This document shows, piece by piece, positions 10,323 through 60,175 of a stretch of DNA of 64,000 nt; position 1 is the first letter of the stretch; the number at the start of each line of letters is the position of its first letter. The notes below the pieces were generated by a model. It saw only the letters and a program-made list of their open reading frames with translations, made no database searches and had not been told where the DNA came from. This stretch comes from Bilabrum cf. latius (taxonomy: Eukaryota), in assembly GCA_965178125.1 (NCBI GenBank), contig OZ237743.1:868001-932000 (forward strand), given 5' to 3'. The translations under genes and the position numbers were made by a program.

Positions 10323-11609
10323 ATGAGCCAACGACGCCTGGAGTAGCGATGGACATTTCCAAATCAGGAAATCAGCGGGTGGGGGGTCACAGTGCTTACG
10401 GTGGCAACAATCGATGCTGCGTTATCGTCTGGTGTATGCTAGCGAAGCAGTCCGGGACAATCACCGTAGTATTTCGAATATTTAAGAGCACAGAGGTCGG
10501 GAGCAGTCACGCTCTAGAAGGTGGACCTTGTGTGCAGCAGGGTGGGAAACCATCGCCACGTAGCCCAGCGTGTACCGATGCCAGCTGTTTCGGCGGAGCG
10601 TTCGCGAGCCGATGGGGAAATCAGAACGATGATTTTTGGTCCGCACTAGCGCTTCGATCTGTTCGATATCGTGAAGGGTTTTGGCGGCTTGGGAACGACA
10701 GGCTTGAGTATACATTTGGCACGACAGATTCTTCTTGCTGTGAGGGACTTCCATCGGAAGCAAATCGCCCACAAAGACCTGAAATTGGAAGTCATTCGCA
10801 TCGACGAGGAGTACGGTGTTCGAATTAGCGGCTTATCGCACTGTATGCCAACTCATGGCTCCGATCAGCGGCCGCGGCCGACGAAACACCGGGGCGGCAC
10901 TCGCGCCTACGCGGCCCCGGAGGCATTCGAGAAAAAGGAGCACGATCCAGCCAAGGCGGACATGTGGTCCCTCGGGGTGCTCTTATTTATCCTCGTGGTC
11001 GGCAGACCGCCGTGCCGTGTAGCATCAGACGAGGACCCTTGGTTCAGGTGCATCAACCGAGGAAACAAGGCGGAGATGGACGAGTTCTGGTCCAAACACC
11101 TCAAGGCGTCCAAGATCAAGATCGACGCACACGCAGTGCATTTCAGGCAGCTGATCGAGGGGCTGCTGCAGGTGGACCCGATGCGCCGGCTGGAGGCAGC
11201 CGCAGTGGTGAAGCACCCTTGGATCTGCACGGTGTGCCCCACCCAGGAGATCTGCCAGGGCCTGCTTCGTAGCATGATGGAGCAGCTGGAAATGAAGAGA
11301 GAAGCCAGGGCGTCGAGCCACCGGCCGACAGACCCGGAAATGGGGGACGGTGCGGGAAGAGCTACATCAAGGAGTGCAGGCCAGCAAGCCATGGGAGGCG
11401 CAAGGGAGGCCGAAGAGGCTGCGTCACGGGCTGCGTCACGGCTACCGGCAGCATCGGCCCGTTCCCCCGGTACGCAAACAGGTTCCGTCCAGGCAGCTAT
11501 GGACGATGGGGAACCTCCCGCAGGCAGCAGCGGGAGCAGCGGTTGCGCAAGTGGCAGCAGTGCGCCCTCTGCTGGCGATGCAACGACCGCTGCTGTCGAT
11601 GGAGAATAA
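10323..11609 (+). CDS. CAMK-like protein kinase-fold protein, probable pseudokinase (copy A)
   Basis: Motifs HKDLKLE, GGTRAYAAPE, KADMWSLGVLLFILVVGRPP and LLQVDPMRR. ATG 10323 is in frame with track ORF 10671 through 5 TAG; ends TAA. DFG is replaced by SGL and the catalytic-loop Asn is absent. Confidence 0.75.
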
Positions 11610-11767
11610 AAATGGTTGCATCCAGCTTGAAGTAGATGCGTGAATTTCGATATCACGCCCTCCTCATATGTGCACTGCACTTCCCAGCCTTGGATTGCAG
11701 TGAAGGGGAGCAGTCGTTGTCGCATGGGATGGGTCTCCCAAGACCATGGCTTCGTGAGTTCTATCAG

Positions 11768-13429
11768 ATGGCCCTGCAGAAGATGAAGCAGATGTAGATG
11801 GTATGGGAGGGCCGCGCTTCATCGAGCCAACTTGACGGCACGCGTGCTAGTGAGAGAGCAAGGGTGACCAGGTATGCCGATGATCGGTGTGTTTCAATGA
11901 CAGGGAGAGCTCTTACCGTCCTATTGGCAGGCCTCCTCAACCAGGCCAGGACGGAGAGGGACATGGGCAGGGGTCGCCTTGTTCTCTGCCGCCTCAAGAG
12001 CACATCGCCCCGGGACGGGGTGGTCGGTGATCAGCTTCCCTTCCTCCGTGCGCTAGCCGCACACCGTGTATTCGGCCCATGTTCCAGTTGCGGCCCTGAT
12101 AGCGAGCCCACTGCGGGTCCAGCTGTCGGGGCCGAAGCCATGCACTACTCGCAGACTGAGGGCGATACCAGCCGCAGGCTAGCTGCCGGTAAGCCGGGGT
12201 ACTCCAGCGCCATGTCCATTGACCAGTTCAAGAGCCCGAAGCTGTCGCCGAGTTGCGACTACATGCCTTCCCATGTCCGCTTCAGGCTTTGCGACTAGTT
12301 CGTGGATGAAGCGATCAGGAACCCGAGGATGCACCTGGAGCACGTGAGCGAGCGCAAGCTGGGCAAGTACATCGTGCGGTGGCCCGAGGTTGTCGCCCTG
12401 GCAGCCGACACGCTGATGCCGCACCACCTGTCCCGCTTCGTCTCCGAGCTCACCGGGGCCACTTCATATTTCAGCAGCGTGAGGGACTGGAGGGCCAAGG
12501 GGAGCGCGGCAACGGTCGTCGGCTTCCAACGGGAGCTTGTCACAGCTGCCGGCCATTTCTCCTGTCCGACCTTGGAGGTCGGGAAGGCAAGAAGTGGAGC
12601 TGGTGAGGGACACCCTCGGGTGTTCCTCAGACGGCGCGGGGCGATGCTGCGCCTTGGCCCGGACTAGACGACAAGCACCACAGTGTGGAACTCGGGGCTG
12701 GGGATGAAACCCGAAGGAGGTGGCAATCGTGCTCCTCCAGATCTCTCGATGGGCGGTGGTGCAGTTGCACAGAGGAACCAGCTTGTGGGAGCGGTGAGAT
12801 GGCCTGTGATGAGGAGCGAGGTGGTGACACCGGCACAGGCGACGATAGTGCGGTGTCAATGCGAAAACCTACCGCGAGAAGTGAGGGCCCCAAGTGGATG
12901 GGCCCCGAATGGATGGAAACCAGCTGGGTGTGGCCCAGGTGCCATCCACGAAATGCAACAGCTGGATGAGGGCAGTGGCTTGCTGCACAGCTGTCTGTCC
13001 GCCGCGCCGGCCAATCGGACCGGAGGGCGAGCGAAGCTGGAGTCCTCCCAGGCTCCAGCCATTGCTATGTGTTTTTGTTTTGTTTTTGTTACTTCGATCG
13101 AAGGTGCGGACTTGTCAAACGAGTGTGTCTCTACTGCATTCACATGCAACTCATCCGGGATGCTGCGGCACCGCCGCCACTGCGGCACTGCAGCTTCACA
13201 TGGCGACCGCCCCTGCCTCTTGTGCGTGCCTGTACGCCCGTGCCCACAGCAGCAGCACCCCCACGCTCGCGGGTGCCAGCCTCGATGCAGGCAGCAGGGT
13301 CCCTTCCTTGTCCTCTGCCCCCGAGCCCTCTGCTGCCGCCACGCCCGAGCCAGCCACGATCCGCTCCACAGCCACGGGGAACTTCCGCAGAGGGATTCCC
13401 TTGATGCTGACGGTGGCACCCGAGGCTGA
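11768..13429 (+). pseudogene. Chimeric ORF (TAG read-through) containing an arginyl-tRNA synthetase DALR anticodon-binding-domain-like fragment
   Basis: ORFs 11798, 12302 and 12683 share a frame and are separated by TAG. LEHVSERKLGKYIVRWPEVVALAADTLMPHHLSRFVSEL resembles the ArgRS DALR helix bundle, with no catalytic domain. The 3' part overlaps the NUDT22 exon copy antisense. Confidence 0.35.
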
Positions 13430-13817
13430 TCCTCCTGCTGCTGCAGTCTCCGCCCCAGCAGCAGGGCCAGACGACTAGTCGGCCATGTCACCTTTGCCCG
13501 CATCGCGCTCCAGGGCAGCGGCCTCCACCCGCTTCAGCTCCTCCGAGAGTGCTCCCAGCACGTCCTCCTTCTTGGCGATCACCAGCTTCGTGCTCTCGTA
13601 TGCCTCGGCGTTGCCGCTCGTGTACCGCTTGGCAACCTCTGCGGCCGTGAGGCTGCAGTCGACTGTGGGGCAAGAAGAGAATCTTGATAGGAACAATTGA
13701 ATCGATAGCTTGCGTCACTTGTGCCAACGTGCATTCTTTGGCAGGCGGACGAGAGCTGCAGGTGGCCAGTCTGGCCACCCCATGAGCACACCAGCCTGAC
13801 CTGACCAAAGGCGCAAG
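12300..13817. repeat. ~1.5 kb direct segmental duplication, copy 1 (partner ~15608-17121)
   Basis: Near-identical sequence at an offset of ~3305 nt; duplicated ORF translations in the track. Confidence 0.9.
13196..13662 (-). pseudogene. Orphan duplicate of the NUDT22-like 3' exon
   Basis: DCSLTAAEVAKRYTSGNAEAYESTKL matches 16501-16967. The upstream exon is replaced by an Fmt 5' fragment. Confidence 0.65.
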
Positions 13818-13823
13818 GGACAA

Positions 13824-15607: not shown

Positions 15608-17121
15608 TTGATGACGCGATCAGGAACCCGAGGATGCACCTGGAGCACGTGAGCGAGCGCAAGCTGGGCAAGTACATCGTGCGGTGGCCCGAGGTTGTTG
15701 CCCTGGCAGCCGACACGCTGATGCCGCACCACCTGTCCCGCTTCGTCTCCGAGCTCACCGGGGCCACTTCATATTTCAGCAGCGTGAGGGACTGGAGGGC
15801 CAAGGGGAGCGCGGCAACGGTCGTCGGCTTCCAACGCGATCTTGTCACAGCTGCCGGCCATTTCTCCTGTCCGACCTTGGAGGTCGGGAAGGCAAGAAGT
15901 GGAGCTGGTGAGGGACACCCTCGGGTGTTCCTCAGACGGCGCGCGGCGATGCTGCGCATTGGCCCGGACTAGACGACAAGCACCACAGTGTGGAACTCGG
16001 GGCTGGGGATGAAACCCGAAGGAGATGGCAATCGTGTTCCTCCAGAGCTCTCGATGGACGATGGTGCAGTTGCACAGAGGAACCAGCTAGTGGGAGCGGT
16101 GAGATGGCCTGTGATGAGGAGTGTGGTGGTGACACCGGCACAGGCGACGATAGTGCGGTGTCGATGCGAAAACCTACCGCGAGAAGTGAGGGCCCCAAGT
16201 GGATGGGCCCCTGATGGATGGAAACCAGCTGGGTGTGGCCCAGGTGCCATCCACGAAATGCAACAGCTGGATGAGGGCAGTGGCTTGCTGCACAGCTGTC
16301 TGTCCGCCGCGCCGGCCAATCGGACCGGAGGGCGAGCGAAGCTGGAGTCCTCCAAGGCTCCAGCCATTGCTATGTGTTTTTGTTTTGTCTTTGTTACTTC
16401 GATCGAAGGTGCGGACTTGTCAAACGAGTGCGTCTCTACTACATTCACATGCAACTCATCCGGGATGCTGCAGCACCGCCGCCACTGCGGCACTGCAGCT
16501 TCACATGGCGACCGCCCCTGCCTCTTGTGCGTGCCTGTACGCCCGTGCCCACAGCAGCAGCACCCCCACGCTCGCGGGTGCCAGCCTCGATGCAGGCAGC
16601 AGGGTCCCTTCCTTGTCCTCTGCCCCCGAGCCCTCTGCTGCTGCCACGCCCGAGCCAGCCACGATCCGCTCCACAGCCACGGGGAACTTCCGCAGAGGGA
16701 TTCCCTTGATGCTGACGGTGGCACCCGAGGCTGATCCTCCTGCTGCTGCAGTCTCCGCCCCAGCAGCAGGGCCAGAGGACTAGTCGGCCATGTCACCTTT
16801 GCCCGCACCGCGCTCCAGAGCAGCGGCCTCCACCCGCTTCAGCTCCTCCGAGAGTGCTCCCAGCACGTCCTCCTTCTTGGCGATCACCAGCTTCGTGCTC
16901 TCGTATGCCTCGGCGTTGCCGCTCGTGTACCGCTTGGCAACCTCTGCGGCCGTGAGGCTGCAGTCGACTGCGGGGAAAGAAGACAATCTTGATAGGAACA
17001 ATTGAATCGATACCTTGCGTCACTTGTGCCAACGTGCATTCTTTGGCATGTGGACGAGAGCTGCAGGTGGCCAGTCTGGCCACCCCATGAGCACACCAGC
17101 CTGACCTGACCAAAGGCGCAA
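15608..17121. repeat. ~1.5 kb direct segmental duplication, copy 2
   Basis: Matches ~12300-13817. Confidence 0.9.
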
Positions 17122-18005
17122 GCAGCGCCCGGTTGCGTGCTTGCCGCGCTTTGACTGCGAGAAATCATGGATTCCCGCGTAAATGCACCTAACTCACTGA
17201 CGAACGTGGCTCCGGCCCTGTTCCCCGCGGTGTAGTTCCTGGTGAATCCGAGCAGCCTCACCGTCCCAAGCGACTCCCGGGGCACCCCTATCTCGTCCAC
17301 GCACTCCTCCGCCATCGCCTCGAAGAGCTCGTGGCGAATCGCGGCATTCGTGTCCGATTCGCTCGGCTCATCCGCGGGCTTGCTGGACCCCGAGCCTGAA
17401 CCGGCGGTGCCAGCGGTGCCACCGCCGGTTGCGATCGCGTCGTCGAAGCCCTCGACCAGATGGGCGATGCCAGGGATGCGCGACGGTTCCGGGTGTCCTC
17501 CCGGGGTATCAATGAGGCCAGCAGCTTCTCCTGTGTGCGCAGACCGCTCCATAAATATCAGCCTGCCATCTTTTGTGGACAGGACGCTCCCGATCCCAAG
17601 TGGGCAGCCCATGAATGCCATCACGTCGCCGTGCTCGGCCCGCCCGCGCTCCAGCAGTTCAGCAGCGTCATCCGCAAGGTGCAGTCCGATAAACTCTTTG
17701 TAGCATGACAAGCCAAATTGGACCTTGGCAGGAGCAGATGAAATCTGAGTGATCTCAGAAGCTCCTGCGAATCGAAACTTGCTGCCGTTGAATAACTTGG
17801 GGTTCGACTTGAGCTTCTATGCCCACACCTTGTCTATATGTTTTTCTCTCTTATCAGGCAAAGACTATCTTGCATACTTCGAGTGGTCAAAGTCCACATC
17901 CACGTGCTACTCTTCCAGTCCGCCGAGATACGAGAAATCAGCGATCACTTCCATTACATCCTTCATGGGGTCCACAGCAGGGGCGGGACTGCTTGTTGAT
18001 GCCAT
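16501..18005 (-). CDS. NUDT22: Nudix hydrolase NUDT22-like; 2 exons (intron 16968-17197)
   Basis: PKLFNGSKFR, GLSCYKEFIG, PLGIGSVL, GLIDTPGGHPEP, HELFEAMAEECVDEIG and DCSLTAAEV..EAYEST follow the NUDT22 motif order. GTGAGT donor and CCCCGCAG acceptor are phase-compatible. TAG at 17907, 17865, 17817 and 16780; ends TGA. Confidence 0.85.
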
Positions 18006-18399: not shown

Positions 18400-19252
18400 C
18401 TAGCCTGACCCACTCGCTGCAGTCCGGTGGCTCGACGCCCTAGCTTCTCTCTTTTCTTGTAGCTGCTCCATCATGCTACGGAGCAGGCCCTGGCAGATCT
18501 CCTGGGTGGGACACACGGTGCAGATCCATGGGTGCTTGAACACCGCGGCTGCCTCCAGCCGACGTTTCGGGTCCCGCCTCCACGTGGATGCACCGCCTCC
18601 TCGTGGATGCATGCACTTTGTCACTATATTTATGTCACCAGTGGCAGTGCCCCTGCCTCACCCCTCATCGCTCGGGGACTCCACCGATGCATCCTCTGGT
18701 GGGCGTTCCGTGCTTGGTAGCCGTTGCAACTGAGGCAAGGGCCACAGCATCATTGTTGCACTTCCAGTTTCCGGATCCATTGTGTGTCATGCCCAATCCA
18801 AATCCATGCTTGACGGCATGGTATCTGTCTTCCTCCGGGGCCGCACAGGCGCGAGTGCCGCCCCGGTGTTTGGTCGGCCGCGGCCGCTGATCGGAGCCAT
18901 GCGTAGCCATGCAATGAAAGCCGCTGATTCGAACACCGTACTCCTCGTCGATGCGGATGACTTCCAATTTCAGGTCTTTGTGGGCGATTTGCTTCCGATG
19001 GAAGTCCCTCACAGCAAGAAGAATCTGTCGTGCCAAATGTATGCTCAAGCCTGTCGTTCCCAACTCGCCAAAACCCTTCACGATATCGAATAAGTCCAAT
19101 GGCTGGTGCGTTTCAAAGGGCATTATCGACACTTCCCCCCAGAGCATGCTTCGAAAAGTGAGGAACGGACTTCGAACGAGGTTGACCAGTGCAATAAACC
19201 AGACTGTTTGGAAGTGCTCGTTACTATATTGGACCAGACTTTCGACTTTCAT
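18400..19252 (-). pseudogene. Degenerate pseudokinase copy B; the C-lobe is interrupted by unrelated sequence at ~18566-18832
   Basis: N-part matches copy C up to CAAPE and then diverges. A C-terminal remnant RRLEAAAVFKHPWICTVCPTQEIC lies at 18400-18565. Confidence 0.7.
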
Positions 19253-20195
19253 CTCTCAAGGATCCTCGATTTTGTCTCGAAGGGATCGAGGAGGGCTGCA
19301 GCGAAGGCCAAACGGGCGCTCGCAAGGGCGGTCCGGGAGGACTTTGCCAGCCTGGCTGTAGGAGCAGCCGAAAACAACAACCTCGCCGTGGCGATCGCGT
19401 CAAGGCAGGGTTGGCTCAGAACGGGCAGCAGGACGGTATGCCGGCAGCGGGCGCCGGAGGGAACGTGAATGCTGACGCTCCCAAGGGGGAAATGGGTCCG
19501 CAGGGTGGAGCTTAGGTGGTTTAGGCCATTGCAGCTGAAGCATGAAGTCTGGTAGGTCCCGGGCCCTCGTTCCAGATGTTTCTTCGTGATAGCGTGCGCT
19601 TTTGAGTTGAGTCCACAAAATATCAGATCCCCCCCAGACTTTCATCTGACGACACGGAGTACGCGGTGGCTTGCCTGGCTGCAGACAAATGTAGAAGCTC
19701 AACAGGCTTGAACGGGGGGTGTATGACGCCAAGGGCACTCGTCCCTTCCGTGCAGGGGAGATGAGTTCTCGTCGATGCAGCGGTGTTTGACTGCACCGCT
19801 GCTGCGACGCATTTTGGTGGGGCCATTGAGGTCACTGAGATTGAGGTCGCATATCGGGCGCAGTACTCGCTCAAGGTGCAGTCTCAGATGTGATACAGCG
19901 AAGCGGAGGCGTGAGCGGTCACAAGGCGGTCAGCCCAGTGCTTGCAGGTTGAGGTGCGGGCGTGTGGGTGATGAGTGACCCGGATCGGATAATACGGTGC
20001 TGTACCCTATTATTACATCATAATATAATACTTATATACCTCCACTCATTACACCCCATTTATTTTGTCGCGTATATTGACCACCCGAACCCGAACCGGC
20101 CTGCGTGGCCGTGGATCCAAGCGGCGGTACTCGGGCCCACTATCGTGATCCCTTAGCACCTCCCAGTGACAGCCAGAAGAACCAATTCCCACGCC

Positions 20196-21326
20196 TCATC
20201 CATCATCGTGAGGTATTTTCTGCTGCCACTATTCCATCGTGAGTCCCCAACCCGGGCTGCTCGTTCGCTCCTCCACGACCCCCGCCGCATGCTCCTCTTC
20301 GGCCCCCGCCGCATGCTCCTCTTTGGCCCCCGCCGCATGGTCCTCTTTGGCCCCCGCCGCATGCTCCTCTTTGGCCCCCGCCGCATGGTCCTCTTTGGCC
20401 CCCGCCGCATGCTCCTCTACAGCCTCCCACCGGCGTGCGCCTCCCGTGGCTTGCTAGTCTGACTTACCAGCAGCACCATCCTCCGATACGGGGCCTACAG
20501 GCCGATAGCTCGATACCGTGAACGCCGTATTCTTTTGCAGCTGCTCCACCAGGTATCGCAGCAGGCCCTGGCAGATCTCCTGGGTGGGGCACACCGTGCA
20601 GATCCATGGGTGCTTGACCACGGCGGCTGCTTCCAGCCGGCGCATCGGGTCCACCTGCAGCAGCCCCTCGATCAGCTGCCTGAAATGAACTGCGTGTGGA
20701 TCGATCTTGATCTTGGAGGCCTTGAGATGCCTGGACCAGAACACGTCCATCTCCGCCTTGCTCCCCCGCTTGATGCAGCTGAACCAAGGGTCCTCGTCTG
20801 ATGCTACACGGCACGGCGGTCTGCCAACCACGAGGATGAATAACAGCACCCCGAGGGACCACATGTCCGCCTTGGCTGGATTGTGCTCCTTTTTCTCGAA
20901 TGCCTCCGGGGCCGCACAGGCGCGAGTGCCGCCCCGGTGTTTGGTCGGCCGCGGCCGCTGATCGGAGCCATGAGTTGGCATGCAGTGCGATAAGCCGCTG
21001 ATTCGAACACCGTACTCCTCGTCGATGCGGATGACTTCCAATTTCAGGTCTTTGTGGGCGATTTGCTTCCGATGGAAGTCCCTCACAGCAAGAAGAATCT
21101 GTCGTGCCAAATGTATGCTCAAGCCTGTCGTTCCCAACTCGCCAAAACCCTTCACGATATCGAATAAGTCCAATGGCTGGTGCGTTTCAAAGGGCATTAT
21201 CGACACTTCCCCCCAGAGCATGCTTCGAAAAGTGAGGAACGGACTTCGAACGAGGTTGACCAGTGCAATAAACCAGACTGTTTGGAAGTGCTCGTTACTA
21301 TATTGGACCAGACTTTCGACTTTCAT
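20196..21326 (-). CDS. Pseudokinase copy C with C-terminal EEHAAGA(E/K) repeats
   Basis: Track ORF 20454-21326 ends in TAG; read-through continues in frame through the 24-bp repeats to TGA at 20196. Confidence 0.7.
20265..20420. repeat. 24-bp coding minisatellite, 6 units
   Basis: Units of the type GGCCCCCGCCGCATGCTCCTCTTC, contiguous, with no spacers. Confidence 0.9.
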
Positions 21327-36790: not shown

Positions 36791-37069
36791 GGGCCAATGA
36801 ATCCGGGATCCGAAACTCCGAATCGCAGATCGGAGCACCTTGCCCGGCTGCGACCTGCCAGTGGTAACGATGTCTACCGATGCGGGTGTGTCCCGACAGG
36901 CCCGACTATTCGGCAGGCCATGCTAGAACGCTGCAGTGCACCTCCTTTGGCATTCAGCTCACGATAATTGAGGATTTCCTATTGGACGCAGCAGGTCGGA
37001 CAACTGAGTGTACATGCACAGCGCGATTGAATCACGGCACCGAAATAATCAATTGCCCTCCGGGTCCAC

Positions 37070-39286
37070 TCAAACTGCGGGGCTCAATTCGTCCTCCTCC
37101 TTCACAACTCCGACCCATGGCCCCCAGAACCCCTTCCAGTGGTCGACAGCCGCCTTGCACGCCAGGGGGGAATCGTGCGCGCCCCTGTCAGGCTGGAAGG
37201 CCTTGCCCTGGGCCTCCCTGATCATCTCCCGCAGCCTGGACCGCACTTCCGGTTTCTCCTTGGCGAGGTCGTGGTGCTCGTTTGGATCCGCCTCCACGTC
37301 AAAGAGGCACCCGTCCTCCCCGCAGTGGCCGATGGTAGTTCCAGCATGCACTGTGGACGAAACATTGGGGAACTGCGGGCCCTGCCACACGTCCATTGTG
37401 AGATTTCCGATGAGCAGCTTGTACTTGGTACCTGCCTCCTGGTCATGCACTACAATGCCCTGCACCAATGTACTGTTCTCGTTGCCTTTCCGTGTCTCAT
37501 GCTACCCAATCTCGAACACCTTCCTTGGGGAACGCTGCTGCTGCCCCGAGATCCAGGGCCACAGGTCCATCGAGTCGATGGGCGGCAGGCCCGCCCCCTC
37601 TGCTTTGTGATCGGTGGGGTCTACGCCAGCCAGGGAACACGAGGTTGCGTACCAGTCAAACGAGGTGGACATGTCCGTTGCGGTCGTGCCTATCTTGTCC
37701 TGGGGTACCAGGCCGCCAGTCACGAATGCGTTGACATGGATGCCGCCTTGCCAGTTGCTGACCTGCAATAAATATAAAAGGGGCAGTGCAATGCAATTCC
37801 GGGGTTGGAGTTTGGGGCTTGAGGGGCCAAGGAACCACCCAGAGCGCTGGTCGCGGATACCAAGAGCGAATCCTGGGCACTTCAGTACACGAATGTCCTC
37901 TGGCAGCCGCCAAAAAGAACGGGCAAACGTAACATGCGCAAACAAAAACTCACCTTACCGCCCCTCCTTGGGTAGTTGTTTGCACCAGCGTACCAGATGC
38001 TGCTGTCGGGCCACTTCCTCCCGCCGTCGTAGATTGGCCCCCCGTTGTCAGCAGAAGCGAACCAGGCCAGGTCCTCCCACATGCCTTTCTCCTTCAGAAT
38101 GGTCGTGATGTTCCCGATAGCCTCGTCGATGTAGTGCACCATCGCCAGGTACCTCCTTCTGCTCTCGTCCTTGACGTCCAGGAACTTCTCGTAGGTTGAC
38201 TGTGGGACCATGAGGGGCTCGTGCACCACGTGCGGCGTGTAGTACAGGAACAGAGGCTTCTCGGGGTCATGGTTCCGGAGGATATCGTAGACCTCATCCG
38301 CCAGGATCTGGTCCTCGTACTTGCAGTGCTGGGAGCCCTCGCCCACGGGGTACGGGTGGTAGGAGATGTTCGGGTTGCACGACTCGGGGCCCACGAGGTC
38401 GTAGGCAGGGCCCTCGGGGATGTGCCTGTCCGGCAGGTCCGAGTGCCTCCAAAAGTCCTTGATGCCCGTCTTGTTGCACGGGTCATCCACCATGGTGTAG
38501 TAGTTATTGGCGTGCTGCAGGTAGATCAGGCTCGAGTCGAAACCTCTACCTTTTGGGGTAGACTCGAACGAGCACATGCCAGCATCAAACTTGCCTGCAG
38601 GACGAATGGGAAATTGCTGGGGGTTTCATGCGAGATGTAAAACTCTATCATGCATTCTCATGGCCGTACAGAGCTTCCACGCGCTGTGCTCACCGACTGC
38701 ATGCGTGACGTAGCCTGCTTGCTTGAGCTTCGCAGCAATCATGGTCATGTTGCGGGGTGCACCGGCGCATATTTTTCCTATGGGAGGGCCTCGCATCATG
38801 TTCCCGTTGTCAACGTTGCAATGCACGGGGAGCCGCCCCGTCAGTACGGAAGATCGCTGCGACCTCACACAGAATTTGCATTAGCATGCAAGACGGGTTG
38901 CGATGGCTGATTCAGGTGGTCAATTAGAATAATCAGTTTAACGTACGGTTGGACTGCAGACCTGGTGGACGTAGTGGTGCCCAAGCTCCATGCCTTCTTC
39001 TTTGAAGAGCTTGTCAAAGTTAGGAGTACGAACGTCTGGGTCTGAGGCTGCGTGCACGCCTACATCTGCCCACCCCCAATCGTCAACAAGAGTCCATATC
39101 TGCAATAGGATAGAACTTGTGGTAAGTATTGGGTGAATAATAATCTGCTGACTTGCGTTTGAGTCACTTGATTTGGAATTCAATACTGAGCAGTTTCAGC
39201 CGGATCACTCTCACAATGTGGGGCGTGCTAGGTTTTGCCCACATTGTGCTTGCCAACACGATGATAGCAGTAGCGAAAGAGCGCAT
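37070..39286 (-). CDS. Secreted arylsulfatase (ARSB/ARSI-like), 5 exons; introns 39100-39214, 38857-38946, 38595-38693, 37763-37953
   Basis: Signal peptide; PHI|IWTLVDDWGWADVG; FGly motif CSPT|RSSVLTGR; GKFDAG; SADNGG; NNYPRRGGK|VSNWQGG; LFDVEADPNEHHDL. Phase-compatible GT-AG introns; TAG at 37502; ends TGA. Confidence 0.88.
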
Positions 39287-39569
39287 GCTGGGAAGGAATG
39301 AGAGCGGTGCGATTGTGACGCGCTGCTTCGAAAAAAGGAAGTGCAACTGCAGCCAACTGCCAGCAGCCTCAGCGTTGAGTTTAGTTTTGGTGGGGATCCC
39401 TGGGAATTTTGAATGTAGGGAGTTGCTCGTATTGGCTATGGCCGAAACGGAATACTCTCGACAGTTTAGTTGAAGGCGACCAATGCCACAAGCCATCAAT
39501 CTGGCCATTGCAGGGCCGCCAAGCCGTAGCGAAACACAGCATCAAGCCGAGCAGTCTTCTGCACAGTCA

Positions 39570-41765
39570 TCACAAATTAGCAGGATCTCTCTGGTTAACG
39601 GCACGCGCCACTGCTGATGCAGCCGCGGCCGCAGCCACAGCCGCTGCGCCTGCCGCCGAGGAGCCACCCAGCCCGGCAAGCCCTCCAGAGGCAGGCACGC
39701 CATGCTGCGAGAGCTGGTGCTGGTGATGTGGCATGCCCACCGCAGGCTGGTGCTGGTGAGATTGCTGCATATGTGACGAGTGCTGCTGCATCGCCGCGCT
39801 GCCCCCGGCCTGTCCGCTGCCAGCCATGTGCATGGGCATGGGCATGGACACGCTCATGGGTGCAGTCCCCACACCCGCCATGGAGGCCTGCATGGCCCCA
39901 CGGGCCGCCTGGGCCGCCTGCTGGTGGGCAGCTGCGGCCACCCTGGCCGCTTGTGAGATGTGGTTGGGCTGCCCAGTTGCCTGCGCGCCGCTCGACGCAG
40001 CGGAGGACGAGGACGAGGAAGACGACGAGTGCTGCTGGGCCCTGGAGATGGGCACGAGCTTGGCGCTGGGCTGGTAGCCCTGAGGCTGGGGCACGAGTTC
40101 CTTGTGTGCCCTGGACATGTGCCTCCGCAGGGAGGAGGCGTAGCTGAAGGTCTTCTCGCAGTGGGGGCAGGGGTACCTCCTCACGACGGGGGCGCGGCCG
40201 TCGGGACCCACCGTTGGAACAGTGACGTCAGCGCCGTGGGTCAGCTGCTCCGGCATCAGGGCAGAGTGGTTCGCCTCGATGTGCCGCCGCAGGTCGTGCT
40301 TGCGGGTGTAGCAGGCCCCGCAGCCGGCCACGGTGCACACGAAGCTAGGCCTGGGGGCATCGGACTTGCGTGGCCTCCCCCCGCCGCGACCCCTGCCCGG
40401 CGTGCGGTTGGGCTGTCCGGGCGCGTCAGCTATCCCCGGAGGTACCAGGGGCTGCAGCACGCTGGCCACCGAGGGCGAGCGGGAGCCCCTCCCGCGACCC
40501 CTCCCGCGACCCCTGCCTGCACCCCCCCGCTGTGGGGTCGACCCCTGGAGCCCCTCCCCGGCCGCTGCCCCCTCCTGATCGCTGCCCGTCCCCGCCACCG
40601 GCGCGAAGCTGGCGCCGTCCTAATGCTGGGCTCCGGCTGCAGCAGCCGCGGGTCGGGCCGCCGCTGCCGCCGCCACTGCGGCCGCCTGTGCCGCTGAGGA
40701 GGGCTGGGCCTGTCCCGACGCGGTGGAGGACAAGGACGAGGACGAGGAAGAGGGTGCCTTCGGGTCAGAGCCCACGAGGGTTGGCTGGGCCTGTCCGATG
40801 GCAGCCGCGTGCTGCTATTGCTACTGCTGGGCTGCAACAGCGGCGGCGGCGGCAGCGGCTGCTGCCACTTGGGTGGGCTGCTGCTGCTACCCCTGTGCCT
40901 GGGCCTGAGCCTGCCCTTGTGCTTGACCTTGCCTCTGCTGCATGGCCTTGGCCACATCCTGATGGCGCTGGGCAGCAGCTGCAGCTGCTACTGCTGCATG
41001 CGCCGCAGCTGCTTGTGCCATATCCTGCTGCTAGTGCGGCTGCTGCGGCAAGTGCCCCTGCATGTGGCCCTGCGCCTGAGCCTGGGCCATCGCTTCGCTG
41101 GCGGCAGCACGGGCAGCTCCCGGTGGTCCAGGCAAGACTGGTGCGCCAGGCTTGCTGTGCACGGTGTGCAGGTGGCGGTGAAGGTCCCGCTTTCGCTTGA
41201 ACCGCTTGGTGCCGCACTTGTCGCAGACGAATTGACGAGTCTCCGTCTAATGCACCTCGCGCACATGGGCCTTCAGGTGCGAACTTCGCTTGAAAGTCTT
41301 GCTGCAGTTCGGGCATTGGTGTGGCCGAGAATCGTTGTGCACCTCCTTCACGTGATTGTCTCTGTGCGACTTGTGCGTAAACGTCCGGCTGCAGTTCTAG
41401 CACTGGTACACTTTTTGAGCGCTTCCGGGCCCCGGCCCGCCCCCAACCACCCCTGGCATGACCCTCTATACCTAAAGTTGTTGGGCTTGGTGCTAGGCCT
41501 GGATTGCGGCAGCTGCAGCAGCGGTTGCAGCTTGCGCAGCTCGTGGGCCGGACACTCCGTGGCTCGGAGGCGGAGCAGGCAACCGGGCAGCCTCCATACC
41601 AGCCTGGTGCTAGTGGGACGCAGCTGTAGCAGCCTCAACAGCCCCTGCTGCAGCTGCTGCAGCAGCTGCAGCAGAGGTAGGCTCCGGTTGCAGGCTCCTG
41701 GGTCTCTTTGGATCTGGCCCTGTTTCTCTGTCATCCGGTCTCGGACGAATATGACCCGCTTGCAT
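39570..41765 (-). CDS. C2H2 zinc-finger transcription factor (5 fingers) with Gln/Ala-rich regions, ~731 aa
   Basis: YQC*NCSRTF..H..EVH, HQCPNCSKTFKRSSHLKAH, FVCDKCG..H..H, FVCTVAGCGACYTRKHDLRRH, YPCPHCEKTFSYASSLRRH. 11 TAG; ends TGA. Confidence 0.85.
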
Positions 41766-47547: not shown

Positions 47548-47740
47548 TGCTCTGAGCACCCAGTCGCAAGCATCTGTCGCGATATGTTCAGGATCAAATC
47601 CGGATTGAGGAAGCCTGCAGATTTCGGAGTTCCGTGGGCTTTGCAGCAGCTGTGGATCTATCCATTTTTTTCCAGGTGTGATTACACTTAACGGTTTCGA
47701 ATTAATGGGATCAGCAACGAACATCAACATCATTATCACC

Positions 47741-49315
47741 TTATTGTCGCCGGGAACGCGGCATAATCTCGGACATGAATGCTCGGAAGGCTGCTGCGTC
47801 AGTGCCAGCACACGCGATACCAGCTCCGCTTTCTGCCACTCGCCGACCAATCATCGAGTCAACGCGTGAATTTCCGCCTGAAGCAGCCACGCTAGCAGCA
47901 ACCACAAACACTACGAATCCGAGCGGACCCAGCCCCACTGTAGCCCTCGATTGCCTTGCGCGCCCCGCCACCACCCGCTGCACAGCCGCCTCCACGTCCC
48001 GCACCGACGCGGGAGCCAGCGCAGGGCAAGCATTCAACACTGCCTGGCTTTCACCGATGTACCCTGCCTCTGCAACGGCACCTGCCTCGCTCCCCCACGC
48101 TGCCGGTCCCTCCGAATGTCTGCCAGCAGTGGCTGGTGCCAGCCTCGAGCTGCCTCTATCTGCCCCGCTCCCCCACGCTGCCGGTCCCTCCGAATGTCTG
48201 CCAGCAGTGGCTGGTGCCAGCCTCGAGCTGCCTCTATCTGCCCCGCTCCCCCACGCTGCCGGTCCCTCCGAATGTCTGCCAGCAGTGGCTGGTGCAAGCC
48301 TCGAGCTGCCTCTATCTGCATCGATATCTCGCTCCAGTCGCGACAGTCCTAGGTCTGTCTTTGATACCTGCATCGCCCTGACTTGCATTCCCCTGTATGC
48401 ATCCACCAGCAGGCCGAACACGTGCTAGAGCACCCGCTCTCTCACCGCTGGCTTACGCGGGTCCTTACCGCGCACAGCTGCAATGCAAGACTGCGCCGTG
48501 ACCCAGATGCAGCTAGCGTCCTTGCATCCCCTGTGCACCTTGTGCTCCGCAACATCGCGCCATCGCATGAACAGGCGCCAGAGCTGCTTGCTGTGCTTCT
48601 TGACGATGCAGTGGCCGGTTGGGGAGCGCAGCAAGATCATGGCTCTCTCAAGGGCGTTCTGCGCGCGATGCCAGTGCACCGTGTGCTTGGTATCACTTGA
48701 AGCGAATCGGTTCAGTTTTGGCGTCGTCTTTCTTTCGGCTGCCCGCAGCCTAGCAGCGTATGGTGGTGAAGCATCGTGTGGCAGGGTCCTCGGCGCGATC
48801 TCGAAACTCAAGCGGCGCTAATGGCAAGGAGAAGGTCCTCGGCCTGTTCCATGTGATTGATACTGAACACCACTGTCTCGGATCGTGACACCATCTACAT
48901 GGATATCTTCCCCGCTAGTGTGAGCAAGGCAGCTTTGGCGGGGCTCTGCTGGTCGAGGTGACGTTGAGCCTTGCCAATCGTTCCACTCGGTGTTCCGTCC
49001 TGCAATCGACTACCAACTGTACTATAAGATACTATCATCACTACCAGGCCTTCGACGGGTGTCGGAAGCGGATGATGATGCTAGGGATTGTTCGCTGGTC
49101 ATAGCAGTTGATGTGGCAGTGACATCTGCATTCTATGAGCCGTCACAGGGGATCACAGCGCCGACATCGCAAGCTTCTCCTGACTACGTACGACTGCAAT
49201 CCTCCTCTGTGCTCTTGCTGGAGCTTCTTCTGAACAAAACAACCGACACGATGGCAGAAAGAGCTACGCCAACGGACGCACCCGCGAGATTCTGTGTCGT
49301 AAGAGACGACGACAT
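47741..49315 (-). CDS. Hypothetical membrane protein (~524 aa) with a 26-aa internal repeat
   Basis: ATG 49315, N-terminal hydrophobic helix GASVGVALSAIVSVVLF. In frame with track ORFs 48425 and 47741 via TAG; ends TAA. Confidence 0.55.
48087..48320. repeat. 78-bp tandem repeat x3 (ADRGSSRLAPATAGRHSEGPAAWGSG)
   Basis: Three near-identical contiguous units at 78-nt spacing. Confidence 0.9.
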
Positions 49316-49491
49316 CACCAATCAGGGCACGACGGCATTAAATGCAGACACCGCATAATTGGGTCAAACTAAATATTAAGCGATGGCGGTCGGATTCGCG
49401 CAGGTATCCCCAGTATTCTGTATCATTGCGCTTGGCAGTCTCGCGGGGATTCGGAGCTTAGAGTGTTTTTAACAATCGCCACACTTGTACC

Positions 49492-51369
49492 ATGCAAGCC
49501 GATCCAGAAACGTGCAAGCAAGATGACATTGATCATGCGGTCGAGATTGTTACTGCTGGCGGGAGTTCGGCAGCAAGTGCGCTGGAATTTTTGCATTCTT
49601 GTATGAAATTCAATGGTCGACATCTCGAATTCGGCTCAAGAGCAATGCAGGAGCTTTTTGTGTCATAGATTGAGGGATCGAACCCAGAGCTAGTTATACA
49701 TGGTGCTAAAGCATCGAATAATAGTTGCGTTTTGAACCCAGAGGGGCTGTCAAGTTGGTTCGAAGTCCGAGGTCCGATGAGAGTGGCATGTGCCATCGGC
49801 TCGCGGGCCAAGTTGAGGGATGTACACGTAGCTGCAAGCGATTGTATTGCTTTGAAGGTGATGAATACTCTTATCAGCCGTTCTGATAGCAAAAAGCAGC
49901 AGTTGGTCGCTTCAGATCCGAGTGTATTGCAATCGCTGGTCGCCACAGCTGAGACGGCCTTGTGGAATGGCGAAAGGACCGGGCCAAAGCTGAGCCTATG
50001 GCAGCATAATGCGTTGCTCGAGCTTTGCTCAAGCACATTTTCTGTCCTTGCGCGCCTGGGTGCGGCCCTTGGTCGCTCTGAAGCTGGGCCTCCGAGTAGC
50101 CCAAGTTGGGTGGTCGCCCAAACGCGCCTCGGGCTGCTGATCACGCGAGTATTGCGGCTGTCTCCGGCGGCCAGCGAGCCATTTCAGAGAGACGCGTGGC
50201 AGCGGTGTGCGGAGCTGCTCATGTTTGCGCCCCGCACGGTGCCCATGGCCGTCGCCACTCGCGAGGGTGGTCCATCGAGTGGAGCGGGGTCCGGGGCAGC
50301 GGGAGGACTGGGGGCGGCAACGCAGGGGGGCTCATTTCCCCTGTTTCTGCTCAGGGCCGGCTGCGTGTGGCACTTGCTCGATGGGGTCCGGCGCGAGGTC
50401 AGTCAGTTCGCGGTGCTGCACGAGCAGCAGAGGGGGGCGAGGGTCCAGCGGAAGCGGAAGGGGGCGGGCGAGAGGGAGGTAACCAGCGGGGCCGGTGCAC
50501 CTGCAGCCACCAGTGGGGCAGGGGCGGGCGGCCCTGCGAAGGAAACGGGCGAAGAGGGGGATGGCAAATAGAGCGCGAAGGACAGCTAGGAGAAGGAGAA
50601 GGAGAAGGAGAAGGAGGAGGAGCTTGGGAAGTCTGGGCAGCGGCTGGCAGCGCTGATGAACGCGTGCTACTGGCTGGTGGGGGACAAGGGGGAGCAAGCC
50701 CGGGCAGTGGGTCACGTGCTTAGACTGGGCAGGGCGGTGGCTGACGCTGAGCAGTACATAGACCAGTCGTGGGCGAAGGGCCGCAAGGAGGAGGCGTCCA
50801 TGGGCACTCTCGGGGTGCTGCTGAGGGCAGAGACAACGGGGGAGAAAGGGACGGGCGGTGGTGACATAGAGGACGGGGGGCTGTAGGCCGGGGATCGGTG
50901 CGGGGTGATGCTGCGAGCCGTGCGAGGCAAATCGGAGGCGCCTCTGGACGTGACTGTGCGGGATGCGGGGCTGTCGGCGGCTTTGGCGATCACGGCGAGC
51001 GAGGAGGATGACGGGACCAAAGGCGCTGGATCGTTGTCAGGACCATTTGCTGTCAAAACTGCGGCCAAAGCCGCGGCAGCCAGGCCGCTGCCCAGCCCCA
51101 CGGCGGGTGCTTGCGAGCTGCTGGCGTCGGTGCGCTCGCTGTCGGGCCAGGGCGGCGCTTCCGAGATGCCAGCGGAGCGAGCGTGCGACTGGGCGCTCGG
51201 TGTTCTACGCGCGTTTGAGCTCGCGCTGTCATCTGGCGGTCCAATGCTCCGGCGGATGGCAGAGGAGACTGCGCTTGCTTCGCTTGGCACAGTGCAGGCG
51301 CTTGGGACCGTGCTCGGGCCAGGAGCTCTCATCGGCAAAATGATGCGCGAGAAAGCCAGTCAAACATGA
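49492..51369 (+). CDS. Hypothetical helical protein (~625 aa); start uncertain
   Basis: ORFs 49732, 50656 and 50905 are in one frame joined by TAG; ends TGA. Confidence 0.6.
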
Positions 51370-51720: not shown

Positions 51721-54401
<2,681 letters not shown>

Positions 54402-54963: not shown

Positions 54964-57900
54964 ATGATATCAGCGAGCGAGATCGAACACTCGCACAGAA
55001 TGGCACTGGTACAGGCGCAGGACATGCGCGCCGGCCACGCAATGACTGCCGGCCGGTCTGGAATCACAGCAAGCCCTGCCGGGCTCAATCGAGCCACGAA
55101 GCTGTAGCGAGCCGGTTTGGCAGTGTCGGATCCCCGAGGCAACACAACAGCCTCCAGATCAACACATTTTGGTCACTTGGACTCCTGTGAGCTGTATTCT
55201 GCAGCAAGCCGCGCGACCTCTCGAAATTGGAATTGCGCCTCGACTCGAAGACAGCATTTCATGGTATTTAATTATTTCTCATGTCGCAGCAAACGAGTCG
55301 GCGCAGCATCGCCGGATCGACCACGCGCAGGAAGTGTCCAGGCAGCTGCACCAGGCCTCCGCCACCCGTCTTGGCATCGCATCTCACCCAGAAGACGAGC
55401 GTACGCATCGACGCGGTGTATTGGAAAGCAAGGAGGGCGAAGGGTCTGTCGCTACAGGCGGCCGAGCCTCTGTGCCGCGACTACCGCTCGGAGTCTCTGC
55501 CTCGGTAACTTCCACGCAGAGCGGTTTTGCCGCCAATGCCGCGGCCAGAGACGAGGGGGTGCAGGAGCGGGCCGCGGCGTGGCTTCGGTCGCGCGGATTG
55601 ATCATCGGGGAAGGCGAGCATCCTCGCGGTAGCAGCAGCCAGGGGTCGCTGGGCGGTGCCACTGGCTTGACGGGCGAGCAGGGGGGGTATGACGAGTACG
55701 GCCAGGTCGCGGGGGAACAAGGAGGGCAGGGGGCACAGCACCATAACGACCAGCTCATGCCTTGGCACCGGAGCGCGGGCAGTGCGGGGGCAGGGAGCCG
55801 TGGTGCAGGGCATGCCCCCGGGCAGCTGTCCAGCGAGTCGCTGCTTCGGCGTGCCATGGATGAGGCCGACAGGTCCGTGGTTGATTCCCTGAGGGAGAAG
55901 GAGGAAGTGAGGTTCGTGACGGGGGAGGGCGCGGGGCACGTCCCGAGGAACAAGGGGGGCAAGGGTCGGGATAGGGGGGCGATGAGGGGTGGGCAGGGGG
56001 CCAGGGCAGCGTACGGGGCTCCTGGGCCGCAGGTGGTGGGGCCAGAGGGGCAAGGGGCCAGGGGTCTCAGCGCAACGGTGGGGGCGGGGCCGGAGAGGCA
56101 GGGCCGTGGGGCAGGTGCACATCAGCAGCAGCTCGGTGGCAGGCCCGACGTGCAGGTGTCAGGGGTGGGGAACTTGAGTGCGAGGGGTCCCGTGCGAGGA
56201 GGTGCATCGCACGGTCGTGGCATGGCGGCCAACGGGCACAGGGGCGGTGGAGCGCTCGGAGGAGGCGTGTCCCCGCGGGTGCCCTCCTAGATGTACTCTA
56301 GGCTCGCGCAGTCCCCGCTCATGTCCTCCCAGCTGGGGCTAGGGGGGCCCCACTCCGCTGCAGCACGGCCCACATCAAGGGGCCTGCAGCACGAGACGAG
56401 GAGCAGGGTGGGGACGAGGCCGGGGTCCAAGCACCCGCTGGCCCAGTCCTAGGTGAGCCTGGTCTCCCCTCGGGGGGAGGCGCTGCCCGTGCCTCCCTCG
56501 GTGCTGGATGCACCCCCTGAATTGGGCGCGCTGCTGCTATCCCGGTCCCCAGTGGAGCTGCTCATGGAGAGGGAGCAACAGGAGATGGAGGCCGGGGTAC
56601 CGCCACTGACCGCCGGACTGCGGGTTAGCGAATGGATCTACACGGAGATGGGACCCAGGCTGCCCAAAGACGTGCAGGGCTTGCTGTGGAGGCAGTCCAG
56701 GCAGGGCGGTCACAGGGGGGGTGAGGGCGCCGGTGGACCAGGGAACATGGGGCTGGGACCGGGGCCGTCCACCGGGGGAACACACAGTGCGTTGGCGCAG
56801 GAGCTGGCACAGGGATCTGCGGCCATATCGCAGCAGCCTTCCCGCAGCTCTACCCATGGCAGGGGTGGAGGTGGTGGTGCTGGCGCTGGTGGCGTTGGAG
56901 GTGGTGGTTACAGGGGGCGCGGTGGGCGAGGTGGGTACCAATCTAGCTCCCGCACCATCACAGTGGCAGGGGCGCCCAACCTGCGGACAGCGCAAAGGGC
57001 CGCACTGCGTGACGAGCGCATGCTGGAGATGCTGCGCGGTGGCGGGGCAGGGGCTGCGGGCGGGCCCAGCTACGACGAACTCATGAAGAAGAAGTCGCCC
57101 AACTTTGACCAGTTCCTGGAGGGCCTCAGGGAACAAGAGGCGGGGCGCGGGTCTAGGATTGGGGGCCTGCAGGAGGCGCTGGCTGAGGCCCGGCGCACCG
57201 AGATGGAGATGGGCTCGAGGGAGTCTGCCTCTACCTTTGGGAGGGGCGGGGCCAGCAGGGGGCTCCAGGGCCAGGCCGCTGGGGAGAGGGGCCTGGCCGA
57301 GGAGGCGGATCCTGCGGGGACGCAGGACCGGGCCGCTTCTCGGGTGCAGGCCCTGTGGAGAGGCAAGCAGGCCAGGGAACAAGTGCAGCCGATGAAGGAG
57401 GAGCGCTAGCAGCAGGCAGCGGCAGCGGCTCGGATCCAGGCGGTGGCCAGAGGCAGGGCGACGAGGCAGGAGCTGGAGAAGAAGAAGGACGCTGCGAGGG
57501 CGGCGAGACTGAGGAAGGGAGGCCGCAGACGGTCCTCCGTGCGGAACCCAGCCGGCGTCCCACTCATCACACCGCCCACGGGTCACCTGACGGGTCTCGG
57601 CGCCACGCAGAGCTTCCGCCAGGAACGGGGCGAGGCCATCGCGCAGGGCGGTGACTAGGTGGAGGCCACGCTGGACAGGGTGGAGGAGGCTGTGGGGCTG
57701 GAGACTGACAGCATGGCCGATCCTGCCGTGGACCACGGGGTGCATGGCGATGGCGAAGGGGGAGAGGAGGAGGACGAGGAGGCTGCCAGGCGGTTCCTCG
57801 GTGTAGACGAAGCAGACAGAGAGGCGGCAGAGGCCAGGGCGCGGGTGGAGGCCGGAAGCAAAGGGGAGGGAGAGGGGCAGGAGGGGGCGGGTGGGGACGG

Positions 57901-60175
57901 GACAGGGCAGTGGGGCGGTGGGGCCGCAGGGGGGGGTCTGGTGGCCAAGCCCAGCACCGCTGACATGGACCGGGACATGGCGGCCGAGGAGCAGATGCAG
58001 GATATGACCACTGCGGCAACGAGGATCCAGTGCGTGATGAGGGGCGCTCTGGCTAGGAAGCAGACCTCGTCCATGCGCCAGATGAAGCTCGACAAAGAGG
58101 CTCAGGAGAAAGAGGAGGCCGAGAAGAAGGCAGCGGCAGCCAAGGCCAGGAGGCAGGGGGTGCTTGCAAAGGCGCGCCGGGCAAGCGTGGCGAGGCGCGC
58201 CTCTGTGGCAAAGCTGCCCGTCGTGGAGGCAGACGTGCTCGAGTGGCTGGCGCAGCGCATTCGGTCAGTGCAACCCGGGGAGCTAGAGCAGCTCACCAAG
58301 CCCAAGAAGCCAGACAAGGCCATGACCGTGGTGGCAGGGGCCCTCTGCGTGCTGCTCAACATACCCGAGCCTTCGTGGCGCGTTGCTCGCAGGGTCATGC
58401 GCCGCGACGGTTTCCTCCGAAAGCTGGGGATGGTTCACCCCTCCCAGCTGGAGCCGTATGCCAAGCGGATCGCACGCAAGCTGGCCCAGGCAGAGAAGAC
58501 CAGCCTGGCTCAGGTCAGGAGCAACGCACCCGCCGCCGAGGCGCAGGCGTCCGCTGCCGCTGCCGCAGCGGATCTGCAGTCGCTCCGCTTCGCCATCATG
58601 CGCGTGCAGGCGGACGAGCAGGCTGCACGGGAGCAGCGGATCCGGGCACGGGCGAAGGCAAGCGGGTAGGACGAGGACGAGGCAGTCAAGAAGGCGGGGG
58701 CGGAGCCCAGCGCAGCGGAGTAGGCGGAGCTGGCGGAGGGCAGAGACAGGGGGCACGCACTGCGGGTGCTGGTCGACTGGATCACAGTGATGGCTTTCTT
58801 TAGGCCGCAGCGCATCGCGGGCGCGTCGCAGGCCCTCGGGGCGGGGGAGGGCTAGCAGGCTGGCGCTGGCGATGGCGATGGGGAGGTGCCCGGGGCCGCG
58901 TCTGGCGTAGCCGGTGGGCCGGCCAGCGGCGCAGGCACCGGCGGTGCGGAGGGCCCTGAAGGGTCTGTGCAGCTGTCCATGCGGTCGGGTGCGTCCTCTC
59001 AAGACTACGCCGTGCTGAGCATGGACCAGGCAAAGGCGTTGCTGCGGGAGATAGACCACGCCGAGTTGGCGCTGGCGGCGCGGGAATCGGTGCCCACCCC
59101 GGCGAGGCAGGTTCTCTTCGGCGCTCTGTGCCTGATGCTGGGCGAGCTGCCGTGCTACGACAACGGGCGCGCTCTGCTATCCAAGCCCAAGGTGTTGCTG
59201 GAGCGGATGGGCCGGCTGGAGCAGGACGGCATCAGCAACAAGCTCAAGCTCGCTTTGGCCGCCCTGCTCACCACGCGGCGCTTCCTGAGCATCAACGAGA
59301 CCAAGCAGAAGAAGATGGGCAAGCCGCTCGCCGACCTCTTCCGGTTCATCATCGCGCTCATCTCAAGCCCGGACATGCCTGCCAAGCGCATCCCGCAGCC
59401 CAGGTCAGCCCGCTTGTCGGCACACCGGTACGTAAAGGAGCTGATCGCGGAGAAGAGCGAGCGCAGGGCGGAGGAGAAGAAGAAGCTGGACGCCAACCTG
59501 GTCAAGGAGAAGGAGGCATCCGAAGCCGACGTCAGGGCGCGGGCGGCATCCACCGCGGCCATCAGCAGGGCAGGGCTCAGCAGCAGGGGGTCCTCTCGGC
59601 AGGGAGCGGCGGGCACGGGGGCCAAGGACATCAAGGAGCTGGCTGCGGATGCGTTCTACGGCGGGGGCGACTTCGGCAGGGAGGGCGTCAGCAGCATGGT
59701 GATGCGGGCCGTGTTCCGCGCGGCCGCTTGGCGCGCTCAGGCAAGAGTGCGTCGCTGGCGGGAGATGAACGTGATCAATCTCCTGAACAGCTCAAGGCTA
59801 GGCATGGCACGAAGGGGACTCCTGGACCTCACGAGAGTCGACCTCAACGACTTCAGGAGGCAGAAGCCCGTAGCCCGTGAGGCCATCGTGCTGGCTGGCG
59901 CCCTTTGCGTCCTCCTCCAGATCAAGCCGTCCTGGAAGAGCGTGCGGAAACTGCTATCGGAGCCTTCGATCCAAGAATTCTTGACGGAGCTGAAACCCAA
60001 GCACGTCGAGGAGGAGAAGATCAACATGGCGCGGCAGTTGCTGACCACGGAGGCAGAGATGGATCAGCTGGTCCGACAGAGCAAGCAACGAACAACGAAG
60101 ATTCTGTACAGGTGGATCGTGGCATTCACAGAGGCACCCAGAGACGAAGCTGAAGCAGCTGGAGCAGAGAAATAA
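54964..60175 (+). CDS. Large protein with IQ motifs and three dynein stalk microtubule-binding-domain-like repeats; intron 55187-55289
   Basis: ORFs 55169, 56453, 57443, 57659 and 58886 share a frame joined by TAG. IQ motifs VQALWRGKQAR, IQAVARGRATR, IQCVMRGALAR; repeats containing GALCVLL..PSW. Ends TAA. Confidence 0.75.

Follow-up and report, generated by a model that had tools for sequence, protein, structure and literature searches.

The 64,000-nucleotide stretch of DNA considered here (the window; positions 868,001 to 932,000 of the forward strand of contig OZ237743.1, GenBank assembly GCA_965178125.1, Bilabrum cf. latius) is very probably nuclear DNA from a heterotrophic flagellate near the bicosoecids that follows the pattern of translation table 15, in which UAG serves as one of the ordinary codons for glutamine, with UAA and UGA reserved for termination. 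The core of this reading, that UAG is a sense codon and UAA still terminates, is supported within the window, and it rests on codon counts, the position of TAA, the drop in coding score past TAA, transcript contigs, and comparison with an ortholog. Together, the counts, frames, scores, contigs, and ortholog bear out, within the window, the uncoupling of UAG from UAA that had been proposed in an earlier interpretation made from the letters alone (the sequence-only reading).

The window has a GC content of about 60%, and the standard stop codons break its long frames; when TAG was read through, frames of 2889, 1873, 1472, 1014, and 878 codons were obtained. A total of 17 gene models contained 14,068 in-frame codons, among which CAG occurred 494 times, CAA 122 times, TAG 98 times, and TAA and TGA not once. 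TAA was present in the off-frames of the same models, with 23 and 46 occurrences. TAG constituted about 14% of the glutamine codons in the window, and if TAA stood to CAA as TAG stands to CAG, about 24 in-frame TAA codons (CAA x TAG/CAG) would have been expected, versus none seen (Poisson P = 3e-11). The table-6-type feature, in-frame UAA at glutamine positions, was therefore absent from all 14,068 codons. TAG was found in 16 of the 17 models, the sole exception being the mitochondrial ATP synthase beta gene, and it was also found in the conserved TIM44 and sulfatase genes.

Gene ends were tallied for 20 genes, with TAA at 7 and TGA at 13; the TGA-ended set consisted of nine open reading frame (ORF) models and the sulfatase, TIM44-like, coiled-coil tail-anchored, and acidic membrane genes. 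TAG could not count as a stop in this tally because the frames were read through it. One model on the minus strand, 16884-18005, was left out of the tally, since its final 60 codons have a non-coding score and the protein continues in another frame, and was kept in the 17-model codon count. The sequence-only reading had named seven TAA gene ends, had given TGA to the other genes, and had found an internal TAA necessary in none; each of its seven coordinates proved to be an in-frame TAA closing a long reading frame, no gene end besides TAA and TGA was tallied, and no in-frame TAA was found in the models. The TGA ends of the ATP synthase beta and TIM44 genes fall at the same residue as in close relatives, and the C terminus of ATP synthase beta is identical to that of a 92%-identical relative, P0284.

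TAA had been treated as a stop when the gene frames were drawn, so that its absence from them risked being circular, and frames bounded by TGA alone were therefore also taken. In the TGA-bounded frames, TAA was found at the margins only: a frame of 2911 codons contained 21 TAG and no TAA, a frame of 1957 codons (41908-47778) had TAA at 47545, 47689, and 47764 only, and the frame 33040-35148 had TAA at 34852, 34891, 35068, and 35089 only. In the seven TAA-ended genes, with the seven boundary codons omitted, the cores (5,578 codons) held no TAA, whereas the 344 codons that run from the first TAA to the following TGA held 6 (Fisher p = 3.7e-8). In addition, a codon-usage score was trained on the window genes, whose 60-codon genic windows had a median of 0.18 (5th percentile, -0.03). 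Six of the seven genes had scores of -0.39, -0.21, -0.19, -0.09, -0.08, and -0.02 between TAA and the next TGA, that is, under or about the genic 5th percentile.

Transcript contigs gave a further view of the TAA stops. Four public runs were aligned to positions 31000-50999, which cover five of the seven TAA stops; the transcript results given here are those among the pieces listed, with 251 further pieces standing outside the list. The contigs of three runs (X5, X6, and X7) showed six joints with GT..AG ends that were absent from the DNA run (X1), came in gene-sized pieces, and included one poly-T loose end at position 36992, where a minus-strand gene has its 3' end; on these grounds the three runs were treated as transcript assemblies. 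The contigs crossed four of the five covered TAA stops unspliced (32525, 34852, 35576, and 47545), and the fifth stop, 47741, lay only within a contig merged over two genes. At three stops (34852, 35576, and 47545) the contigs break off short of the next in-frame TGA, so that, were TAA a sense codon, the messages of an ATP-grasp gene, a quinone oxidoreductase gene, and a 1873-codon gene would lack a stop codon.

The ATP-grasp gene (ORF 33154-34854, plus strand; stop 34852-34854) contains 1 TAG, and its next in-frame TGA is at 35146; contigs from two runs end at 34932 and 34952, and three more in-frame TAA codons lie past the stop. Beyond these contigs, RNA depth is about 0 at 35002-35518, where the DNA run has about 20x, parts of the window without RNA cover being weak evidence. 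For the zeta-crystallin-like quinone oxidoreductase gene (ORF 35576-36790, minus strand; stop 35576-35578; 1 TAG; next TGA 35444), the transcript contig ends at 35519. The 1873-codon gene (ORF 41926-47547, plus strand; stop 47545-47547) has 15 in-frame TAG and its next TGA at 47776, and contigs from two runs end at 47651 and 47705. The other TAA-ended genes are an alpha/beta-hydrolase gene (ORF 31592-32527, plus strand; stop 32525-32527; 2 TAG), with a 5' intron at 31508-31601; kinase paralog A (ORF 10323-11609, plus strand; stop 11607-11609), with 5 in-frame TAG and the next TGA at 11628; a 524-codon gene (ORF 47741-49315, minus strand; stop 47741-47743), with 6 TAG and the next TGA at 47711, 9 codons on; and a 1472-codon gene (ORF 55757-60175, plus strand; stop 60173-60175), with 7 TAG.

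In the sequence-only reading, several of these TAA codons had been placed right after a complete domain or ahead of an AT-rich untranslated region. The first of these descriptions fits two genes. In the hydrolase, the match to the Pfam family Abhydrolase_6 reaches the last position of the model at residue 302 of 311. In the quinone oxidoreductase the Pfam model ends at residue 384 of 404, and the alignment with human quinone oxidoreductase 1yb5 extends to residue 385 of the query, which faces residue 350 of 351. The AT-rich untranslated region fits best at 60173, past which the GC content of third codon positions falls from 0.67 to 0.38 and the following 300 bases are 36% GC.

Glutamine as the meaning of TAG was read mainly from the TIM44-like gene on the minus strand (TGA stop 61340-61342; last exon 61343-61888; middle exon 61969-62586), which has 6 in-frame TAG, four in the last exon and two in the middle exon. 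A full HMMER search yielded 570 TIM44 relatives, and a word-based search for relatives of the exon with greater length yielded none. The TAG at column 128 is matched by glutamine in 79 of 95 aligned homologs, and at the three other TAG columns of the last exon the residues are polar ones of various kinds, glutamine being among the commonest. Furthermore, a metagenome contig, L001 (3026 bases, 46% GC), carries a syntenic TIM44 ortholog with 83% and 68% identity over two exons and keeps the gene order, with the acidic membrane gene next to TIM44. All six window TAGs of TIM44 stand opposite CAG or CAA in this ortholog, which has an in-frame TAG of its own opposite a window CAG, and over three aligned exons 7 of 8 TAG columns have CAG or CAA as the facing codon in the comparison of the window with L001. 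Because this relative of 46% GC has an in-frame TAG, the code change is common to relatives of very different base composition.

Other genes contributed to the assignment to different degrees. The C2H2 zinc-finger gene (39570..41765, minus strand, TGA stop) has 11 in-frame TAG, several of them within glutamine runs, and in the kinase paralogs TAG is opposite CAG in 3 of 4 informative columns. Tests of neighbor composition for the meaning of TAG gave a signal from the zinc-finger protein alone and nothing without it. The TIM44 homolog column and the L001 ortholog columns ruled out two other candidate meanings of TAG, the serine of Scotinosphaera and the leucine of exLh.

Several observations weigh against table-15 decoding or lessen the reach of the evidence for it. 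The eighth TAG column of the L001 comparison is opposite TCT (Ser), in the unconserved N-terminal part of the neighboring gene. The TAG columns of the methionyl-tRNA formyltransferase (three) and the quinone oxidoreductase (one) were variable and uninformative in PDB alignments, and across 116 homologs the formyltransferase columns held L/A/I/V/H, V/H/I, and mostly P, a composition that names no amino acid. In the hydrolase gene, the stretch past TAA scores 0.17, which is coding-like beside the genic median, and the contigs pass TAA and end at 32692 and 32731, so that the next in-frame TGA (32672) falls inside the transcript and this gene alone is undecided. The TAA stops at 11607 and 60173 lie outside the transcript-covered stretch; runs X5, X6, and X7 were taken as RNA on labels that say only “RNA?”, and for X5 “probably DNA”; and contig ends are weak evidence of RNA ends, support rather than proof. 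The sample is one 64-kb window of about 20 genes, which sets the 95% upper bound for rare sense TAA elsewhere at about 2 per 10,000 codons. Lastly, 5 of 16 genes have a TAG close to the 3' end: for the stops at 49, 20196, 22276, 26530, and 34854, the distance is 9, 11, 11, 2, and 18 codons, respectively. The share expected is about 12% per gene (P = 0.03; with two paralogs counted as one, 0.09), and TAG may retain some leftover stop function near 3' ends. These late TAGs are what would be looked for under a context-dependent code like that of Blastocrithidia or Condylostoma, with TAG mostly glutamine but a stop near some 3' ends, or with TAA occasionally read. Such a code is unlikely here, as the excess is marginal and would be explained equally by old TAG stops, the late TAGs being codons that may formerly have been terminators and are now read through; elsewhere TAG is spread over whole gene lengths, and TAA is internal in no gene. 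With respect to the feature of ambiguous codes, in which one codon is both sense and stop (Condylostoma, karyorelicts, and Blastocrithidia), the window therefore offered TAA that is never internal and a marginal excess of late TAG, seen in DNA only.

Two other explanations concern TAA as glutamine and the reality of the in-frame TAGs. Under table 6, both UAA and UAG would encode glutamine, UGA would be the sole stop, and TAA would merely be rare at 60% GC. CAA is indeed the minor glutamine codon in this GC-rich genome (122 versus 494 CAG), so that TAA would be the rarest glutamine codon, and the hydrolase TAA-to-TGA stretch, coding-like and inside a transcript, is what table 6 predicts. This explanation is nevertheless very improbable, given the roughly 24 in-frame TAA expected and none seen, the clustering of TAA past the proposed stops (6/344 versus 0/5,578 codons), the three genes whose contigs stop before any in-frame TGA, and the fall in coding score past TAA in six of seven genes; the 46%-GC relative, in a small sample of 548 in-frame codons, likewise has 15 CAA and no TAA. 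That the in-frame TAGs are an artefact of pseudogenes, assembly errors, intron sequence, or UAG-to-CAG RNA editing is extremely improbable. Some models are faulty (the 3' part of 16884-18005 and the kinase 5' ends), and nothing else was found in favor of an artefact. TAG is present in 16 of 17 models and in the conserved TIM44 and sulfatase genes, and L001 has its own in-frame TAG opposite a window CAG. Independent runs agree, with one letter difference over 20 kb among the pieces listed, not at a TAG, and contigs are colinear over TAG-bearing frames; one transcript contig of 6132 bases is colinear with 41986-48117 without letter differences or gaps. As the in-frame TAGs are intact in colinear transcript contigs, RNA editing and hidden introns are not the explanation.

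The window shows that TAG is translated, as glutamine, that TAA and TGA close genes, and that the TAGs stay unedited in the transcript contigs; for what lies behind this, a mechanism can be proposed. A tRNA-Gln with anticodon CUA, one mutation from the standard CUG, would pair with UAG and not with UAA, and the rest of the change would fall to a release factor eRF1 that is poor at UAG yet still reads UAA and UGA. Such a system should have no UUA-anticodon tRNA, since that tRNA would read UAA too. This combination would be the most likely one. It agrees with the published explanation of such codes, a CUA-anticodon tRNA together with an altered eRF1 (PMC5304391), as does the proposal in the sequence-only reading that eRF1 discriminates UAG or is outcompeted by a CUA-anticodon tRNA. 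The predicted eRF1 changes would lie in the N-domain, around the GTS, NIKS, and YxCxxxF motifs named in PMC5304391. Searches for tRNA genes found 0 in the 64-kb window and 0 on contig L001, and eRF1 is not among the genes of the window.

The statement of the sequence-only reading that UAA and UAG are mostly reassigned together agrees with PMC11687900 and PMC5304391, and according to the former the two codons nearly always have the same meaning. PMC11687900 also describes reassignment of UAG only, with UAA kept as a stop, to glutamine in Iotanema spirale, Protocruzia tuzeti, and two phyllopharyngean lineages; UAG only has been reassigned to leucine in the rhizarian exLh and an uncultivated ciliate lineage and to serine in Scotinosphaera (PMC11687900). 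A code of this type is thus already described in several lineages, a point omitted from the sequence-only reading, and the present finding is less surprising for it. TGA is the commoner stop in the window (13/20), whereas UAA ends 87-98% of phyllopharyngean genes (PMC11687900). As in Iotanema spirale (Fornicata), Protocruzia tuzeti, and the phyllopharyngeans, UAG is in ordinary use as glutamine in the window, with UAA and UGA as terminators. Unlike in those cases, the organism is neither a ciliate nor a metamonad, its closest named relative being a bicosoecid stramenopile, and the DNA is a chromosome stretch of 60% GC in which many genes, mitochondrial ones among them, stand together and GT..AG introns occur.

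With the table 6 organisms (Tetrahymena, Oxytricha, Hexamita, Streblomastix, some ulvophytes, and Amoeboaphelidium protococcarum), the window shares glutamine, the usual new meaning, for UAG; in table 6, however, UAA is also glutamine and UGA is the sole stop, whereas in the window TAA terminates 7 of 20 genes and lies within none. The uncoupling of UAG from a UAA stop is shared with exLh, the uncultivated ciliate lineage, Scotinosphaera, and the mitochondria of chlorophyceans and chytrids, but in those codes UAG is leucine or serine (leucine in the chlorophycean and chytrid mitochondria), and the TAG columns of the window are glutamine. Gut phages with code 15 reportedly also have TAG as glutamine and TAA and TGA as stops; those are viral genomes, unlike the window, which represents a cellular nuclear genome with spliced, mitochondrial, and flagellar genes. 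Literature searches that left most subscription journals outside found no report of a nuclear code change in stramenopiles or bicosoecids and none of a GC-rich non-ciliate with UAG as glutamine. The type of code is known, then, and what differs is the lineage and the type of genome (GC-rich, conventional, intron-bearing, TGA-preferring, and probably stramenopile).

The gene content of the window bears on its source. Pfam matches included three protein kinase paralogs, a flagellar NYD-SP28 (DRC1-type) protein, the methionyl-tRNA formyltransferase, the alpha/beta hydrolase, the ATP-grasp protein, the zeta-crystallin-like quinone oxidoreductase, the C2H2 zinc-finger protein, and mitochondrial ATP synthase beta; the TIM44-like gene and a spliced sulfatase were further genes beyond this list. 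Introns in the window are 90-275 bases long, with GT..AG ends. An origin of the window as giant-virus or phage DNA was ruled out by the spliced genes and by the mitochondrial and flagellar genes. ATP synthase beta has metagenome relatives at 96% and 86% identity, and its closest named relative is that of Bicosoecida sp. CB-2014, with 82% identity over the core and 67% over 620 residues; this alignment spans a coiled-coil insertion and a C-terminal extension, both common to the two proteins. The best named matches of the formyltransferase are from oomycetes. Judged by these best matches rather than by a tree, the source organism is probably a bicosoecid-like stramenopile.

Codes that split UAG from UAA are rare, and their existence makes the shared fate of the two codons a tendency and not a rule. 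If the reading is true, a case in a GC-rich, conventional nuclear genome with introns, outside the ciliates and metamonads, would be an added independent origin, and with a relative of other base composition it would offer a clean system for how eRF1 and a CUA-anticodon tRNA divide UAG and UAA between them. In practice, standard-code gene callers would cut almost every gene at TAG and table 6 would overrun the TAA stops, so that table 15 is the right choice. According to PMC13524828, confirmed giant-virus isolates all come from standard-code hosts; if flagellates of the present kind host giant viruses, viral genomes with the same code could be explained, which is a lead only. A broader scenario would have UAG change to glutamine independently in a bicosoecid-like clade of heterotrophic flagellates, represented by the 60%-GC genome and the 46%-GC relative, as the first such case among stramenopiles and in the absence of AT pressure. 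In this scenario the clade would also be a possible kind of host for giant viruses with TAG as glutamine, and the late TAGs would be former terminators; taken jointly, these propositions are unlikely.

Among the TGA-ended genes, the 2889-codon gene (49..8718, minus strand) has 21 in-frame TAG and no TAA. The sulfatase gene (36992..39420, minus strand; TGA stop 37070-37072) has four GT..AG introns, 1 in-frame TAG, and a poly(A) site at 36992. The main exon of mitochondrial ATP synthase beta (51721..53631, minus strand, TGA stop) has 0 TAG. Its frame is without the first ~40 residues of the 92%-identical relative, and an upstream exon is therefore likely. Within the N-terminal beta-barrel domain the protein has a coiled-coil insertion of about 110 residues, and its C terminus is extended by about 76 residues; both features are also present in metagenome relatives of 640-710 residues.

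The three kinase paralogs (10323-11609, plus strand; 20196-21326, minus strand; and 22276-23655, minus strand) and a fourth fragment (18668-19255, minus strand) form a segmental duplication, and a frame neighboring the kinases is present in two nearly identical copies (13199-13714 and 16504-17019, both minus strand). The kinase models are without the Pfam N-lobe, their matches beginning at profile position 77-84, so that their 5' parts are probably mis-modelled or decayed. Kinases B and C (20196-23655, minus strand) have seven-residue acidic repeats in their tails. The 524-codon gene contains an in-frame tandem repeat, with a unit of about 26 residues present three times, and at 49315-49342 two divergent gene models have start codons 27 bases apart, which implies an extremely short promoter region or one mis-called start. 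The stretch 60176-61340 is an AT-rich spacer between convergent genes, with a 2-kb bin of 42% GC versus about 60% elsewhere.

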